DNA of 62,770 bases, counting the filler, from Rhabdomonas costata (Eukaryota), in the NCBI GenBank assembly GCA_019059605.1. It is 36 parts of 36 records of this genome, joined end to end, with 100 filler letters (N's around TTAATTAATTAA, not from the genome) between each part and the next. Parts side by side here need not be neighbours in the genome. Positions count along the whole stretch, not along the records: positions 1,746 to 3,392 come from JAHMHO010011343.1; 35 more parts are not named here. One strand, written 5' to 3'. Positions 1,746-47,040 of the stretch are shown here, piece by piece. The notes beneath the pieces were generated by a model. It saw only the letters and a program-made list of their open reading frames with translations. It was not told the origin of the DNA and did not search any database. Position 1 is the stretch's first letter, and each line of letters opens with the position of its first letter. Made by a program: the position numbers and the translations under genes.

Positions 1746-3015
1746 TCCGGGCTCAGCTTCAGGGTGCGGTAGCAGGTCGTGCAATGAACTTGCCTTTCGG
1801 TCAACCTTCGCAGCGCACTCTGAAGTACCCAAACATACGCTTTCAGATGAACCTTTGTCTCGTCACGGTTCCGCAAAATCGCATTCACGCACCGGAACAA
1901 AAACGACTCCACCGTGTACAGACGAATCGCAGCCTCGAAAAGCTCGTCGTCGTTGCCGCTCATGAAAGCCTTCTTCAGCTGCTCCGCAATCTGCTCGGGA
2001 CTGGGATGCCGTGGCCAGAAGTCGCTCTGGGTGACTTCATTCTTTTGAAAGTGAGCTGCCCTAAGACTCGCCCATTCCGCGTAGTCGACCTTCCCGCAGA
2101 GGTATGCCCTTCCTTCCTGCAAGACCCCATTGCATAACTCCTCCACCGATACTTTCGTGCGATCGAAGAGAGCATTCCGATTTCCAATCAACGGGCTTTT
2201 TGCAACGGAGCGAGCAAAGGATCGGTTGTACGTCCGAATCGAGCTGGTGTCGCAGGCTCTCGGTTCGCTGTTCTCCGCATGTGATGCCTCTATTCGCAAA
2301 TAAGCTTCCAGTACTCGCAGGCCTTCCGGGTGCTTCTTAGATTGCCTCATGCATATGTCCAGTGGGCTCTCCCCGAAGTTATTGCGCAGCTTGCGCACAT
2401 CGAAGCTCCGCCGGTGGGCACCGTGGCGGTCCAGAAGCCACAATAAGGCCTTGGCGCGCCCCTGATCGGCCGCAGCGTGAAACGCGTAGCTCCCAGAGCG
2501 GGGCTCTGTCCAGTGCAGACAGCACACACCACATTGCTGGAAAACCTTCTCCATCGCCGAGACATTGCCAGCTCGTGCTTCATCATACAGCATCGATTCG
2601 CACACCACCTTCTCCTTCTCCTTCCGGAGTGACTCCGGTAAAGGCTGTAGACAAAGCACCAAACCAGTGCAGGTGGTAAACCACTTCAAAGAGCCCGTCT
2701 CTCAATGAAGGTTCTTCAATTCTTCAATTCACAATTAACCTAGAACGGGGTGCAAAAAGCAAGCAAAGTAAGAATATTGAACAGGACCACGAGCAGCTAA
2801 AAGTACAGACTCCGTTGTGCCGGGGTTGGCCCCTCTGAAAACAGAATGGTTGCACGCCATACAAGTTTGTCGTGGCTGCAGTCACACGTGAAGAGGGTTC
2901 GGGTGACCAGCCGGATCTCATGACCGAAGTGGCAGGCCTCCGCGCAAGCCTCACAGCAGCCATAGTCCCCCATAAGCCCGCAGGTCTCGCAGCAGAACAT
3001 GAGGTGCATGTCCAT
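1746..3015 (-). CDS. UBR-box zinc finger + ankyrin repeats + mono-ADP-ribosyltransferase-like domain (3' truncated by contig end)
   Basis: Exon 1 at 3015-2863 encodes MDMHLMFCCETCGLMGDYGCCEACAEACHFGHEIRLVTRTLFTCDCSHDKL (UBR-box C/H spacing). A phase-0 GT-AG intron spans 2862-2645. Exon 2 at 2644-1746 has ankyrin motifs (GSYAFHAAADQGRAKALLWLL, NNFGESPLDIC) and the ART signature AIRLYTVESFLFRCVNAILR...LQSALRRL...CYR. Confidence 0.82.
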
Positions 3016-6000
3016 CGCGATGCCGTGGCAAAGCGATGGCTTTCGCGTGCGAGAAAGAAAGGCAGGAAAAACACCGCGTTTGTTGGTGTGTCGGTGGGAT
3101 GGGGTGGGGGGAGTGAAGACGGGACGAGGGAAGAGAAGGTGAAGCCACGCACCACAGTTGTTTTCGGCATAAAAAATGCCGAGTTCCAGTTAGGGGCTTT
3201 GATATGTCCCACTGCTTTTCCAATGAAGAGCTGCATTCGCTCCTCCCGGTGCAGATTATTCAGGAAATTTACGGAATGTGTCCAGTTGCAAAAAGTGCAA
3301 CTGCACTGCACTGAACTGGCAACTCATACCATTCATTATCTCACCTCTCACACCCAGCACCGCATCAAAGTCCAACCCCTTCACCACAAACCNNNNNNNN
3401 NNNNNNNNNNNNNNNNNNNNNNNNNNNNNNNNNNNNTTAATTAATTAANNNNNNNNNNNNNNNNNNNNNNNNNNNNNNNNNNNNNNNNNNNNTTGTTTTT
3501 TAGGACACAGTTAGGTAACTATGTCACAGTTAGGTTACTATTTCAGCTACCTATAAATACATTGACTTTCACAAAATGGGGTCAGGTATGCTGTTTTTCT
3601 GACCCTTGGACGTACCCCCCCCCAAAAAAAAAGACTATTGAGGCAAAAATTGTCCCAAATGTGGCACAGCTTGCGCACACTCCGGGGCTATTCAAATAAA
3701 CGTGTCCACAGCGATTTTTCTGAGGAGCTCTCCATGACAGATTTGTTGTTTTTTCTGAGCGCATCCCAATTTTAAGCACCAATAATATCCGAAATACCAA
3801 GGTGTCGTGATTCATTTGCCAGACCTCGGTTCAGAAGGAAGTGCTTTGCAGACTTTGAATAACACAAAAATAAATTCTGCTTGAGAAAAACTCTTGCTTC
3901 CAGGGTTCAAGGGCTGGATGTTTCAGCAAAGTACATAGTAATTATCAACAGATCTCAGTGCGCTTACTTGGGACCCCTTGTGACAATGAATACGGGTATG
4001 CCCCAGAAAATATAGCCAGATTTAAGGAGCTTCACATGCTTCACAAGAAGCAACCGTGCTGTGATGATTCACAACGTGACACTTTTGCAAGTAACCAATT
4101 CTTTTGGTACGACTTTTTCACCTCTCTCGCTTTTAAGGTGGAACGGGCAACATTTACACGAGGTTACAGCCGCAAGAAGTGAGCAAGACCGATCAACAGC
4201 AGTCTGGGAAAATACCTACAGATCTGCATAACAACAGTTCTTGGCGTTCATGACACACTTTTCTTTCTCGAAAAAGAGAGGCAGCGAGAAGGAGAAGGGA
4301 AAGCGTTGGGCATTAGGGTTCACCTTTGCCAGACGTTACACGGGCGACGGGGATGTGCCTGCAGCCACGCCAACGTCCCAGCCACATCCTTGTTAACCTC
4401 TCGCCGCCGCAGAAAGCCATAACTCACGCGCTCAACTGAAAAGCGCTCAGCTGAAAGCGGGCTAGGCCGGAAGCAACGCACTCTCCCTCACACAACGCAC
4501 GGAACTAACGCTAACCCTGCTCTTTGAGAGCACCCAGTACGCGTGCAGTTGCAGGAGAACATTCAAACCCTATATGGCAGGGCCATGGAGACAAAGCTCG
4601 GAAGAAAGTACAGGGGAAAAGCTTAGAAAAGGCCAAAACAACGCGAACACCGACCGAACACCCTGACAGTGTGGGGTCAACTTTACCACGCATCTGCCCC
4701 AAATGGTAGTTTTTTTACGCACGCTCACAAGGAAAAATGGCCGTAAGCTTGCGTAAGTGTTCCCCAGAGGGAGATTGGCCAGAACAAGGCGGGGGGAGGG
4801 AAGTATCCACAAAAATTCATACAGTTACGAGAGATTCTCTGCATGCTGCCTTCCCGAAATGCTGAATATGGGTTCAAACTGTATGTGCTGGGCCGGAAGG
4901 CCGTGAACGCTGCTCTGTCCTCGGAGCTTGGAAGTACAATTCCGCGCTGTAGTCAATAGTTGCACTATCTTTTATTCCATTCGCAGGGGAAAGACGATCA
5001 TCCCCCGCATCCCCTCATGGAAATTCAAGCTGCCGCGTTGACGGATTATCGGAAAAATCACTTCTGGTAACCACCTCGTCTGTAGATCGCCATGGACACG
5101 TTTCTTTTGCATGACCAGAAACCGAACATCACACAAACCNNNNNNNNNNNNNNNNNNNNNNNNNNNNNNNNNNNNNNNNNNNNTTAATTAATTAANNNNN
5201 NNNNNNNNNNNNNNNNNNNNNNNNNNNNNNNNNNNNNNNCCCAGGCTGACGTGTGTGAATTTCCGCGCGCCGCGTGGGTTGGATGGATGTCTTGATGTGG
5301 TGGGCGGTTCTCCCATACCCGTGAAGTGCATGTGCGGCCAGGTGAGTAATAATTCATGAGCTTTTTTTTGTTTTGGTAAGGTCGGGCGCGGGGAAGGGTG
5401 GTGATTGGCAGCCCTTACAGCCAGTAACCGTTACCAGGGAGGGAATGCTGGAAGTCTTTAAAAGAAACTGCTCGGAGGCCCTCCAGGTCACGTGCCCGCC
5501 CCAGCGGCCCACTGCACCACGCCGCTGGCCGTCGCCCCTAAACAAACGTTGTCCTACTCCCTCCCTCCCGGCCAATGGCTGTTTCCTTGCCGCAGTAATT
5601 TTGAGGTTCCCAGCTAAAGCACTCGTTTTGGGAGCCCTCAGAACACGTACGGAGCTGAGCGGGTGCTAGCCCCCCCCCCCACCAGAACAGGGAAAAAGAA
5701 CAGCGTTTTGAACACGTTAGAAACTAGATACAAAAAAATAGCTGCAACTCATACAACAACAGGAAAAAGAAAAATACTGCGTACTAAACAAATGCCTCAT
5801 AAATACCTCAAATCTCAATAGATTTACAGACGAATTGTATTGCATTTCGCTATTCTAAGTTTTTCTTCCAAAAGTTTTCAAGGATTCCAGCGTCGTTTGC
5901 TCACGGAAACTTGATCCTTATTGTTTTGTTAAGAATGCGACATTTGCCAACAGAAGACTAAAAACGAAATGAAAGATGCAATTTCATGTCAATCTGCTGC

Positions 6001-11159: not shown

Positions 11160-13253
11160 GTAGGCTTTGCCCGCCCCCCACGCACACACACACACACACA
11201 CGGGTTGTGAGCGTGCGAAAGTTCCCCAGAAAAGGGTGAAGAAAGCACATTTGCGAGGTCGCGGCAAACCTATTCAGGAGTGAGGGGATTAGGGTTTCCC
11301 AATGTTTGGTTTCTGGTGTGCAAACAGTTGTTAGGAAGAGCTGAAGACTGTGAGCAAAGACGATGGGATACGATGGCACAGAAAGCACGGCATCTCTCGC
11401 TGAACTTTGCATCAAGCCCATGTGCATGCAGGGTCACTTCTGTCGACTCACACCGCAGCCAATGACAGCAGGGGGCGTTGACTACTTCCGAGTTTCACCC
11501 TAGCTAGTTGCGGCGTGAGGAGTAAGTTGCGTTTTTTTCCTTTCGTCTCCAAGTAACAACAGCGTTTGCACGCACACTCTGCCCGAAATGTTTTCCTCGC
11601 TTGGAGCTTACCTCTTAACCCGTTTTCAAGAGTCTGTCCAGGGCGAAGCCTCCGATTAGACCCTGAAGCTTGCACAAGACCGTCCCAACCTGAGCAGACC
11701 AATCAGCGTTTGCATTAGTGTTCGGTGCTCGTTGGTACGACTCCTAAGACTTCGTGCATCTCACGCTGATGGATACCTACGGAATATCTGAGCAAATGGA
11801 AATGTGAAGAAAAAAGTGGAGAAAAGGGTGCAAGGCATGAAGCGTGTCATCGCACAAAGGAAAAAAGTATTCCCGGGGAAGAGGGGTGGAAGTGACGTGG
11901 AACTGGGTGGAAAGGGACGGAAGGGAAAGGGAGCAGCGTGCCTGTGCGTTATGAAGCAGGTGGAGAAAGTCGGCAAAGAAAGACTGGTTGGTCGAAAAAA
12001 GAAGAGACTAGCGCAGTATTTTGTGCAGCGACTGAGCATCAAGGGCGAAAAAATTGACGCGAAAAGGAAATTTTTGTACGAACCATCCAGGCGAACTCAG
12101 TTGCACCATCCCATCAAACCCCCCCCNNNNNNNNNNNNNNNNNNNNNNNNNNNNNNNNNNNNNNNNNNNNTTAATTAATTAANNNNNNNNNNNNNNNNNN
12201 NNNNNNNNNNNNNNNNNNNNNNNNNNGGTTTGTGTTGATGATTTTCTCACCCTCTTTCCCCTCTTCTGCTGAATGGCATCTTATTTCATCGTAGAGTGTA
12301 AGCTTATGGCTTAGGTTTCGTAAAAGCTGGCTGTATGTAATTTCCCCTGTGAGGTTTTCCTTTGGGTGGGTTTACTTCTTTTGAGTTTATTTTGCATTTC
12401 GTTGCTGAATATTGGCTACGCATTGACGGTACTTGCTATGCTTCTGTGGTGTTCCGCAGTGGCCCTTGCAGTGTCACTGTACGGAGAATTGATGGATGGA
12501 CCCTGAAGAATCGAAACCTCCCTTGAGCTCTTCTCCATCATGCAAGCATGCTTGCTTTTGCACTGACAGAATAGGCTGGTATTACCGGTAGTGGTAACCA
12601 TTGGCAATGTTTTCCTTGGCAGTAACAGAGTTCTTTTATATAGGGAACTTTGGTGGCCTAGAGAATGGGACAGCCTCTCAGCATCCCCCGTTCCCACCAG
12701 CCCGGGCATTGTTGTGGATCCGGCCAGCATACACAAATGCAGGCATAAGTACATATTTCTGTTTGCATCATTTTATTCAATGTTCTTATATTTTTTTCTT
12801 TTTATTTCTGTCCCAAGTCGCGAATACTGCTCACACAATCAGACTCTTTCCTTCTTTTATTTTGCGTTTTATTTTGTGCCGGCATTGGCCGAACAGCCAG
12901 CTTCCGTGCTGAAGAGACGGTTGAAGGGGAAGGCTTTGCTGCAATGCGCCTTCTTCCGCTCACCTATGTTTCTATTTTACGGTGCTCTAGAGTTCCCGGA
13001 AACTGATTGCGAGGAATGTGGCAGGGACAGCTGCGGTGGCAGTGCGGCTGATGTTGTTGCAGGAGAGCGATATTATCAAACCGGAAAGATTCCAGCTTCT
13101 CTCTCTGTTTTCTTTTCGCCTTCCTGCAATGTTTTCGTGCAGACCTTGTTCTAACGACTCCTCTTTCCCGAAGTCTTTACCTTGCAATACCTTGTTTCTT
13201 CCTCTTTCTGTTTCTGCTCTCATTTTGACCAACGCCGTGCAGTGGTTGTGGCG

Positions 13254-44032: not shown

Positions 44033-45614
44033 ATCGGTTGCCATCCTTTGCTGTGTAAATATTGTCTGCCCTCCTGTGCTGTTTACTTTATCGGTCTTCC
44101 ACCGCGTGTGCCGTTGCACCGTTCGGCGCTTTGGGTTGCAGGGTTTTGTAAACCCACCCAGTCCGCGAATGGCCCGCCATGGCTCTGAACCCATTTGCGC
44201 CATTTCTTTCACAAAAAACTGGGTTCTTCCTTCAACCCCTCCCGGTTATTTTGCCCAATCTTCTGACAGTTTTCATCCAGAAAACTTCCAAGACGTGCCC
44301 GGTCTGACCTGGCTTTTGTGGGTCGAATCCTGCTTCTGCTTGGGTTGTTTGGTGCGTTCGGCCGCGTCGGTTTTTAAAATTTGCCTGCATGATCCTGCTT
44401 TGCCCTTTGTGGGAAGAAAGCCAGTTTGCTGGAGGAGGGTTGCCTGCAAAAAATCGGGGTGATCAGCGTGTTGAGAAAAATAAACCACATCAGAAACAAA
44501 AAGGGCAGAAGTTTCGGGCGAAGAAAGACACAGAACACAGAGCAAGCGAACATAAAAAGAAATAGCGGCCCATACAAGAAACCAAAGCTACGCGCGCCAA
44601 GGTATGGGCGACGAATTCCGCCCTGTCGATATGTGAGCAACGAAAAACCGGTCAGCGCGAACCGCGAACCAGTGGCATACTGTGTCTCCAAGTCCAATGG
44701 ACCTGCTGGATTTGAACGAATTGACGAATCCGTATCCTTTTCTCAAAGCCTCGCATTTGCCAAGCAAATGCTTCGATCACCGCTTAATCAAGCGGTTCAT
44801 TGGGGTCCACGGCGTGCAAAGAAAGCCATCACCCAGAACACTCGCATCGGACAGTGCAACGTACGTACATTCGATTGTGCAGCTCTCTGTGCAGCACATG
44901 AGCTGAACACAGTCCTTGCCTCTCAACGCGCACAGCAGGGCTCGCTTCATCAGTTGCAGCCTTGAGCCCCTGAAGAAGGGACACCCAGCAATTTGAGTCC
45001 TTGCGTACGTGTCCTCCTCACAACCTCCTACATACACAAGAGACAGAACGAAATATACGTGGCAGAAAGTCTAAGAACGTATCAGAAGCCCTTTAGTTGG
45101 CTTTGGGCGATTTTGAGCCATCAGTTCGACCGTTTGGTTTCGGTGGCGCAAAAAAAAGGCCCAGCGTGAAACGGCGCATCCACTGATTCCATTCTGATTC
45201 CATTCTAGCTGCAATCACGTGACTTGCTCGGGATCAAGGGACGGGTATGTCAAGGTAAGGCTACAAAGAAAGACGTGCACAAAAAACATACAAAACTCAA
45301 AATCGAGACNNNNNNNNNNNNNNNNNNNNNNNNNNNNNNNNNNNNNNNNNNNNTTAATTAATTAANNNNNNNNNNNNNNNNNNNNNNNNNNNNNNNNNNN
45401 NNNNNNNNNGTGTTTTGTGCCTACTTTCTCCAGAGCAGAAGGGCACACCCAGTATTTCGCTGAGTACAGGCAGCGAGTTTTTTCATCTAGTCCAAGCGTG
45501 AACAAAAATGAAACGAAAACTACTCATTACCCGTGCCTCCACTCGCGGTGTTCCGCTGTGATCTGGTGGAGTAACAGAGTACAAGGGTGTGGGCGGGTGC
45601 GAAGCGGGCCATAC

Positions 45615-47040
45615 GTCGTCGTACTGGTACGAGCGAGTGTGGATGTTCTTGATACGGTTAATGTACGTCAGCAGCTGCACGAAGAACCGGATCGCGTCGG
45701 CGTACCGCCGCACCATCATGTACACAAACCCAGTGTAGTAGTAGAGCGTCATCTGGCAGGCCACCACCTTGCTAAACAGTTGGACCTGGGTGAGGTGAAT
45801 ATACCTCATCCACCCACAACAAAATACACGAATGAGGCGGTGAGAACCACATCTGAGGAAGGCCACAGATTTGTCAAGCGATTTTAAAAAGAAGGGAAGC
45901 TTGCCTGTCACCAACATCTATGCAGCCAGGGCACGTTCCAACCAATATTTATTTTGCCAGACCAGCAACTCGCAAAAGTCCCCCAAGGCCCGAGGCCTCT
46001 TGGCCTCCAAAGGGCCCTCCGAGCCTATGTAAAGACAAAAAAGCCGTTAGTGCAGCACAAGAGCATTCAGCCCATTTCGGTAACCGCATGAAGCGCTTAG
46101 GCTCAGTAGGGCACCCCAGGAGCTTGAAAAAGCAGTAAAGTCCAGAAAGGCCCAGATTGGACCCTTCAAGAAGCCATAAATGGGCGTAGCGATGCAGCCA
46201 GAGATCAGGAGCACCACAATTCCAAACGGCCAGTCCAGCTCATGTTCAGCTGCTCGTCCTCCGTCCGCCTCCGCCTCCGCCTCCGCCTCCGCCTCCGCCT
46301 CCGCCTCCGCCTCCGGTACCAAGGGGCCATGTCGGAAGTTCCCAGTGAGAAGGCAGGGCCGGCACTTTTATGCAAAAACTTTTGGCCCCATTTTTTTTTT
46401 TTGCAAATTTTTGCACTGCAATAGGGTGAATGTGAATGATACCCTCAAAACAGCAAAAACAAGAATTCACGTACACACCCGAGAGACGAAGTCAATGCTA
46501 TCGATGCTGCGCAAGGCGGTGTAGTAGTCTCCCAGCAGGGTGTGCACGCGCAGCAGCCCAATCATGGAGTAGTATCCGAGCATCCGAACAAAGTGCGTTG
46601 GGCTGGACACCTCCAGCACCTCCAGAGCTCTAAACGTCAGAAAATCCATAAGTTCCAAACAAGGTCGTACCAATGGTCAACGTTTTACCAAAATTGTGAG
46701 GTTATTGAGGTTCTTGTCCATCTGTCTGAAGTTGCGGATGTTATGCATGGCCTCAGCTAGTCCGTCCCCACTCCCTTCCTGGTGATAGCGTTCGCTGTCG
46801 ACTTTTAGACGAAAGCGAATGCTATCAATGATGTTCCAAACTTGTTGCAAAAAACATTTCCCTTCTTGATAATGAGGATTGTTGTCACTGTCGTTTATTT
46901 TCGTCACTATCGTCTTTCAATTTTGACAGCACTCAGGAGGACACACACCCAGTGCGCTTCTCCTTCTCCAGGAACTTCACGATCTCAGACTTCGCCACAA
47001 GCCCGTTCAGGGTCTGAATGACGTACACTGGGCTCCAGAT
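45615..47040 (-). CDS. EIF3L: Eukaryotic translation initiation factor 3 subunit L (three internal exons)
   Basis: Exons 47040-46949 (IWSPVYVIQTLNGLVAKSEI...), 46629-46479 (RMLGYYSMIGLLRVHTLLGDYYTAL) and 45785-45615 (CQMTLYYYTGFVYMMVRRYADAIRFF) splice in frame and match eIF3L motifs. Confidence 0.95.
46264..46314. repeat. (GCCTCC)n microsatellite inside an eIF3L intron
   Basis: Read directly from the sequence. Confidence 0.95.

Follow-up and report, generated by a model that had tools for sequence, protein, structure and literature searches.

In the euglenid Rhabdomonas costata, a short contig of the draft assembly GCA_019059605.1 carries what are, in our judgement, probably the first two recognisable exons of a paralogue of an intracellular protein family that combines ankyrin repeats (Ank), an ADP-ribosyltransferase (ART) domain and TPR repeats, with a leader resembling a UBR-type zinc finger spliced on in front. 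The gene is a probable new domain variant of this known Ank-ART-TPR family. The window, i.e. the whole stretch of 62,770 bases analyzed here, consists of 36 pieces of 1644-1649 bp each, which are separated by N runs around a TTAATTAATTAA linker. The pieces that stand side by side are unrelated contigs, and adjacent features are not physically linked. The gene-bearing piece (positions 1746-3392, JAHMHO010011343.1) comprises 1647 bp with a GC content of 0.54, and the gene is located on its minus strand and ends at the contig edge. Exon 1 opens with an ATG at 3015-3013 and continues for 51 codons to position 2863, where a donor GTATGG begins at 2862 (GT 2862-2861). The corresponding acceptor AG at 2646-2645 is preceded by TGGTTTGGTGCTTTGTCTAC, and exon 2 stays open for 299 codons from 2644 to the contig end. 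Both exon edges are in phase 0. A first-pass annotation had read the two open frames as a single gene, and inspection of the sequence confirmed its coordinates, reading frames and phase-0 GT-AG edges.

The family membership of exon 2 was established by an exhaustive phmmer search against 1.84 billion representatives. This search retrieved 39 relatives at E <= 1e-3, five of them at E <= 1e-30. The closest are four R. costata proteins from EukProt (P0003, P0004, P0005 and P0009), and the other relatives are ENA predictions. Three of the R. costata proteins share 55%, 49% and 44% identity with nearly the whole of exon 2 (residues 3-298, E 1e-81 to 6e-68), and the fourth is 56% identical over 120 residues. 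The homology is collinear across the ankyrin repeats, a helical linker with the motif SPLIG(D/N)R and the start of the ART domain (alignment A1). A quick maximum-likelihood tree built from 18 members of the family, for which the careful search was incomplete, groups the window protein with the four R. costata proteins in a single clade, supported by an SH-like approximate likelihood ratio (SH-aLRT) of 95. The family shows a common order of a variable N-terminal leader, two to three ankyrin repeats, the SPLIG(D/N)R linker, the ART domain, a short helical region and TPR_10/TPR_12 repeats. Among 18 relatives scanned against Pfam, many of those lacking TPR being fragments, seven matched ART at E <= 0.01 (three of these above the cut-off, with 30-34 bits), seven carried TPR_10/TPR_12 above the cut-off and none matched zf-UBR.

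Of the 299 residues of exon 2, 238-296 match positions 67-131 of the 222 in Pfam ART (PF01129) with 22.1 bits, which is 0.2 bits under the cut-off of 22.3, the domain being truncated. The ankyrin matches are sub-threshold (E 0.008-0.06), and the ankyrin repeats of espin were matched at E 0.0018. Of the three domain profiles, only zf-UBR, in exon 1, exceeds its cut-off in the window protein itself (28.0 bits against 25.2). The assignments of Ank and ART in exon 2 are secured by relatives that score above the cut-offs over the same aligned columns, namely P0007, P0012 and P0024 on ART (33.1, 33.7 and 30.0 bits) and P0003-P0006 on Ank. The AlphaFold (AF2) model of exon 2 (pLDDT 80.0) is wholly helical, shows helix pairs in the ankyrin region (pLDDT 83-95) and contains just the leading helices of the ART domain. 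The linker (residues 113-237) matches no Pfam family and is helical in this model, with two low-confidence loops. The ankyrin repeats and the helical region of the first-pass annotation are therefore supported by the Ank scores of the relatives, the alignment and the model.

The arginine of the R-S-E triad is present in the window protein as part of a CYR motif (residues 291-293), which aligns to the (Y/F)R of 9/12 relatives covering this column. An S-x-[ST] motif follows the Arg motif in the family, and ExE is kept in 7/11 relatives. In the other four it reads ECK, EHQ, ETK or is garbled. Losses of catalytic residues were seen among P0004, P0008, P0011, P0015, P0016 and P0024, with the arginine changed to C, W and C and the glutamate motif to ECK, EHQ and ETK. 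The family is likely, as judged from these residues, to include pseudoenzymes. P0004 lacks the triad arginine, unlike the window protein. The earlier assignment to an R-S-E type ART is supported, as the CYR arginine is present and relatives score above the ART cut-off and carry the S-x-[ST] and ExE motifs. It was also right in placing the S and E motifs off the contig, since both would lie beyond its end at 1746. The family thus resembles the R-S-ExE mono-ADP-ribosyltransferases, including the vertebrate ecto-ARTs of PF01129 and the toxins VahC, C2-I and Certhrax, in its profile match and in the (Y/F)-R, S-x-[ST] and ExE motifs of the relatives, whereas the window copy itself shows the Arg motif alone. 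In contrast to solved ARTs, the domain of this family is placed between ankyrin and TPR repeats, and its sequence similarity to them is marginal (best match XopAI, E 0.3).

For the relative P0042, which is 53% identical to the window protein in their overlap, the AlphaFold model reaches a pLDDT of 86.9. In Foldseek comparisons with the PDB, the mixed alpha/beta core of this model matched the ART domains of VahC, C2-I and Certhrax over 225-235 columns (E 3.3e-5 to 5.8e-5), and its C-terminal half matched the TPR of kinesin light chain KLC1/2 (E 7e-12, 38% identity). The C-terminal TPRs of the relatives are like those of KLC1 and KLC2, but they follow an enzyme domain, whereas the TPR of the kinesin light chains follows a kinesin-binding coiled coil. 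The contig of the window copy ends before this region. The ESM Atlas clusters nearest to exon 2 (score 0.95) contain Ank with or without ART, are named 'NAD(P)(+)--arginine ADP-ribosyltransferase' and are commonest in Rotifera and Mollusca. These clusters have no UBR in their annotation, the comparison being one of feature space alone and hence a lead, not an alignment. Based on the family architecture, the fold matches of P0042 and the ESM Atlas clusters, Ank+ART(+TPR) is an existing, uncharacterised kind of eukaryotic protein, and only the UBR add-on is unusual. The novelty claimed in the first-pass annotation is narrowed in the same way. A combination of UBR and ART occurred in none of 40 relatives and in no paper retrieved by full-text literature searches, as judged by titles and the opening of abstracts, the main review of ART architectures and supplements to papers lying outside their scope, so that an earlier mention is possible; Ank+ART, as a lead from the clusters, is already annotated in other eukaryotes.

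The leaders of the relatives differ from that of the window copy. The R. costata Ank-ART(-TPR) proteins, which share 44-56% identity with exon 2 from the ankyrin repeats through the SPLIG(D/N)R linker to the ART start, have low-complexity leaders at their N-termini, some of them beginning with MG..C, together with an extra ankyrin-like helix pair, and contain no UBR motif. The N-termini of P0005, P0009 and P0017 read MGCTSC, MGSVCS and MGAKC. These starts look like signals for myristoylation and palmitoylation, which suggests that much of the family may be membrane-anchored. A different leader was found in P0039 (251 aa, ENA record), in which a WWE domain (Pfam, 38.7 bits) precedes a related ART start. 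P0039 is another case of a reader module of the ubiquitin/ADP-ribose system fused to such an ART.

Exon 1 encodes the core of a UBR-type zinc finger. It matches positions 10-57 of the 69 in Pfam zf-UBR (PF02207) with 28.0 bits (cut-off 25.2, E 2.4e-6), and the score remains above the cut-off when exon 1 is extended upstream (25.5 bits) or read through the donor (31.0 bits). Among solved UBR boxes the best matches were UBR4 (PDB 8j9q, E 7.4e-6) and FBXO11/UBR6 (PDB 5vmd, E 3e-5), i.e. at E of about 1e-5, which share the spacing of C-x2-C, C-x2-C, H-x2-H and C-D-C with exon 1; BIG and UBR5 were also matched. The ESM Atlas clusters nearest to exon 1 are zf-UBR clusters. The UBR-type zinc finger that had been proposed for the protein start is therefore real in its core. 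When the 130-aa stop-to-stop frame was aligned with the solved boxes, the alignments started at Met1 (one a residue earlier) and ended at residues 47-51, and only positions 16-61 of the 73 in the UBR4 box were covered. According to PMC10687169, a UBR box binds three zinc ions through 11 Cys/His ligands, arranged as one C2H2 site and a seven-ligand two-zinc site that consists of seven Cys in the UBR4-7 subfamily and of six Cys and one His in UBR1-3. Eight of the 11 ligands, as read off the HMMER alignments, are found between Met1 and Leu51 in the four motifs named above. The finger has no counterpart of the N-terminal strand of the box, which carries the first Cys, nor of its C-terminal tail with the last two ligands, and no Cys or His was found at the expected distance after the CDC motif in either the spliced or the unspliced reading.

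Part of the missing sequence might lie upstream of the ATG. If the exon began at 3039 instead, codons 3039-3016 would extend the open frame and place a Cys at the fifth codon ahead of Met1; the Pfam alignment then reaches profile position 2, while the score drops from 28.0 to 25.5 bits. The 21-nt pyrimidine-rich tract and the AG at 3041-3040 are a possible acceptor for a spliced leader or for cis-splicing. Exon 1 could accordingly be an internal exon of a gene that extends past the other end of the contig too, or this AG could be a spliced-leader site that leaves a 5' untranslated region of 24 nt.

The residues with which known boxes contact their ligands are described in PMC10687169: the Asp of C-D-C binds the alpha-amino group of the ligand in UBR2 and UBR4, Phe1713 of UBR4 contacts the ligand and forms an aromatic patch with Phe1671, and Asp153 is a selectivity residue of UBR1/2. 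The C-D-C Asp is retained in exon 1, but the same Asp is present in FBXO11, which does not bind N-degrons according to excerpts of PMC5606531. The position of Phe1713 is occupied by Thr, that of Phe1671 falls before Met1, and that of Asp153, two residues past the CDC motif, is occupied by His. Compared with the boxes of UBR4 and FBXO11, as far as these sources describe them, exon 1 covers only positions of about 16-61, with the first Cys, the final pair of ligands and the aromatic contacts absent or altered. In addition, the boxes of UBR4 and FBXO11 are set in a ubiquitin-ligase context, whereas the finger of exon 1 would be attached to an ART instead. Reading of N-degrons by this finger, as the first-pass annotation had suggested, is thus not supported by its sequence.

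The new domain combination depends on the join between exon 1 and exon 2, which we regard as likely on sequence grounds, with appreciable doubt. UBR homology stops at residues 47-51, the last codons before the donor GT, and family homology starts with the first codons past the acceptor (PLPESLR compared to PSPEQLR); BLAST reaches only 1-7 codons beyond. The GC content at third codon positions (GC3) is 41/51 (80%) in exon 1 and 200/299 (67%) in exon 2 but 10/21 (48%) in the read-through past the donor, and the overall GC content is 0.46 in the intron compared to 0.56-0.60 in the exons. The interval holds 65 GT x AG pairs, of which 11 would join the exons in frame and without a stop. Among these 11, the pair 2862/2645 has the joint-best acceptor (13/20 pyrimidines, CAG) and, unlike the co-best pair, retains all family-homologous residues. 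The ten others were rejected: one has an equally pyrimidine-rich acceptor and loses homologous residues, and the rest have poorer acceptors, some of them adding non-homologous residues. The GT-AG pair 2862-2645 is thus, as far as the sequence can tell, the best conventional splice between the exons. An eIF3L exon on another contig (window positions 45612-45809), which is delimited by alignment to solved eIF3L chains, also ends at a GTATGG donor. According to PMC8219788, all 29 completely mapped introns in six R. costata genes are GT/AG. In each of the four R. costata relatives, the PS.EQL motif is preceded by a stretch of 70 residues or longer, and an upstream exon is therefore expected for exon 2. 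No significant coding relic was found inside the intron. A candidate relic of the ancestral first ankyrin helix pair (ETGS...VLCLQ, resembling the relatives) was discarded, as its score of 65 does not differ from that of shuffled sequences (66 +/- 7) and 1137 of 2000 shuffles reached the in-frame score; the best score in another frame (88) rests on one short match.

Several findings weigh against a spliced UBR-ART enzyme. A regular-expression scan for the Cys/His pattern of UBR boxes was negative in all 40 relatives. No such protein was found elsewhere by word-index searches, which used exon 2 against proteins of similar and of greater length and exon 1 against longer ones, although these searches missed known relatives and are weak for that reason. 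Neither the exhaustive nor the word-index searches retrieved a database protein identical or nearly identical to the gene. Because 11 of the 65 pairs join open and in frame, being in phase is weak evidence on its own. The finger is three of 11 zinc ligands short if Met1 is the start, which could mean that it is degenerate or that the 5' end of the gene model is incomplete. The triad Arg is lost in 3/12 relatives and ExE in 4/11, while S, ExE and TPR of the window copy would lie beyond the contig end, and the catalytic activity of this copy is, from its sequence, uncertain. Furthermore, UBR boxes also occur as small proteins of their own (157 aa on average in the nearest ESM Atlas cluster, which is a lead only), and a spliced-leader acceptor resembles a cis acceptor.

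The latter two points belong to an explanation by two transcription units, which we consider unlikely but the strongest of the competitors. The UBR exon would then derive from another gene, whereas the Ank-ART gene would start by addition of a spliced leader at the AG at 2645 and be translated from Met18 of exon 2. In variants of this explanation, the UBR exon is either the last exon of an upstream gene that ends at the TAG at 2799-2797, or a small stand-alone UBR protein. The UBR box of FBXO11 is C-terminal. The in-frame Met 18 codons into exon 2, the slightly higher zf-UBR score of the read-through (31.0 compared to 28.0 bits), the pyrimidine tract and AG upstream of the ATG, which would suit an internal or terminal exon, and the lack of UBR+ART in any relative are all in line with two units. 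The same holds for the ability of euglenids to trans-splice a leader onto their mRNAs, as stated in the relevant passages of PMC8219788. However, residues 1-17 of exon 2 align to the relatives (P..E.LR) and hence look coding, and the relatives all carry long N-terminal extensions. On the other side of the interval, GC3 falls directly past the donor, UBR homology halts there and the read-through brings no Cys/His ligand. The two coding blocks are also only 218 nt apart on the same strand, in a window whose other long open frames rarely match Pfam: a Pfam scan of the 80 longest of the 167 stop-to-stop frames of at least 100 aa, covering the other contigs, matched a family in only two (an eIF3L/Paf67 exon and an Fe-S motif), and the assembly is therefore gene-poor.

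Less probable than two units is a decaying or catalytically dead copy, i.e. a non-expressed duplicate or a pseudoenzyme that has lost its S/ExE motifs, in which the UBR exon came to lie beside exon 2 by chance or through a chimeric assembly. In its favour, no identical protein was found in collections among which is a euglenid proteome derived from a transcriptome, relatives often lose catalytic residues, the finger is incomplete, and a contig of only 1647 bp comes from a very fragmentary draft. This explanation has to account for 299 open codons with 44-56% identity to the relatives and a coding-type codon-position GC of 67/57/44%, for the retained Arg293, and for a UBR exon with a strong GC3 bias (41/51) and intact Cys/His spacing. 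The model of the first-pass annotation, in which the UBR box reads basic N-terminal residues and guides the ART to ADP-ribosylate the corresponding substrates, is the one we hold very improbable. The arguments for it are the conserved C-D-C Asp with its role in UBR2 and UBR4 (PMC10687169), the fact that the best PDB match, UBR4, is an N-recognin, and the physical coupling of reader and writer if the splice is real. They are outweighed by the truncation to positions 16-61 of 73, which puts the positions of the first Cys and of Phe1671 ahead of Met1 and provides no equivalent of the last Cys ligands, by the changes of Phe1713 to Thr and of the Asp153 position to His, as far as these residues are treated in PMC10687169, and by the presence of the C-D-C Asp in FBXO11, a non-binder of N-degrons according to PMC5606531.

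Table. Features of the gene-bearing contig (positions in the window)
Feature	Position	Strand	Basis and remarks
Pyrimidine-rich tract (3071-3051) and AG (3041-3040)	3040..3071	-	Read from the sequence; 24 nt upstream of the ATG
Exon 1, Met1-Leu51, core UBR-type zinc finger of the UBR4/FBXO11 kind	2863..3015	-	Pfam zf-UBR; solved boxes; GC3 41/51
Proposed phase-0 GT-AG intron, 218 nt	2645..2862	-	Donor GTATGG; acceptor with 13/20 pyrimidines, then CAG
Exon 2, ankyrin-repeat region (residues 18-112)	2309..2593	-	Sub-threshold Ank; espin match; relatives; AF2
Exon 2, family-specific helical linker (residues 113-237), SPLIG(D/N)R motif	1934..2308	-	Alignment and AF2 model
Exon 2, N-terminal part of ART (residues 238-299), Arg293 codon 1768-1766	1748..1933	-	Cut by the contig end at 1746

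No further piece of the gene was detected when ten family proteins were compared with the whole stretch by tblastn, all other matches having E >= 0.12, and metagenome contigs yielded no extension of it, whether scanned with a profile or for an exact 35-nt match. A search of phage proteins and an Rfam scan of the whole stretch gave no matches. The eIF3L exon (45612-45809, minus strand) is an internal exon of eIF3 subunit L with a Pfam Paf67 score of 77.8 bits and matches to solved eIF3L chains at E 3e-14; two AGs are possible as its acceptor. On the plus strand at 12996-13070, within the open reading frame 12567-13151, a short match to Pfam FeS (PF04060; 25.8 bits, cut-off 23) probably represents a short exon from a gene for an Fe-S cluster protein. 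The contig at 26203-27849 has a GC content of 65.5% compared to about 51% elsewhere and one plus-strand frame that is open from end to end. It encodes more than three copies of an Ala/Pro/Gly-rich unit of about 174 aa (522 nt) without a match in Pfam, a repeat that Tandem Repeats Finder (TRF) overlooked because its period exceeds 500. An outlying low GC content (39.6%) was found in the contig at 33189-34834.

Returning to the preferred interpretation of a spliced member of the Ank-ART-TPR family, the enzyme of this family would be an intracellular, repeat-guided mono-ADP-ribosyltransferase of the R-S-ExE type. The ExE motif of R-S-ExE enzymes points to arginine as the acceptor, and by analogy this suggests arginine specificity for the family enzyme. 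The ankyrin repeats in front and the KLC-like TPRs behind the catalytic domain would select its partners. The N-terminal leader varies from copy to copy, and the MG..C leaders of several relatives would act as a membrane anchor. In the window copy, the leader would be a single exon with a trimmed finger of the UBR4/FBXO11 type that is GT-AG-spliced onto the Ank-ART exon. This finger most likely serves as an alternative targeting or partner-binding module and would not be a canonical N-degron reader. A swap of the N-terminal targeting module is the simplest reading of the gene. It is a long shot that the trimmed finger does read peptides, with the upstream in-frame Cys or ankyrin residues perhaps completing it, and steers an Arg-specific ART to particular N-termini or short degron-like motifs. 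If this were true, the recognition logic of ubiquitin ligases would have been rewired to ADP-ribose writing, in a degron-to-ADP-ribose pathway of a protist without a described counterpart.

The weight of the finding is limited, as only part of the gene fits on the 1.65-kb contig, the S and ExE motifs fall outside it, and features required for N-degron reading are missing from the finger. If the splice is real, a UBR-type finger is found on an ADP-ribosyltransferase instead of a ubiquitin ligase, and the gene would provide a compact natural construct for asking what UBR boxes that are not N-recognins bind. The Ank-ART-TPR family would then diversify by swapping its N-terminal modules, which include leaders resembling acylation signals, the WWE domain of the distant relative P0039 and the UBR-like finger of the window copy.

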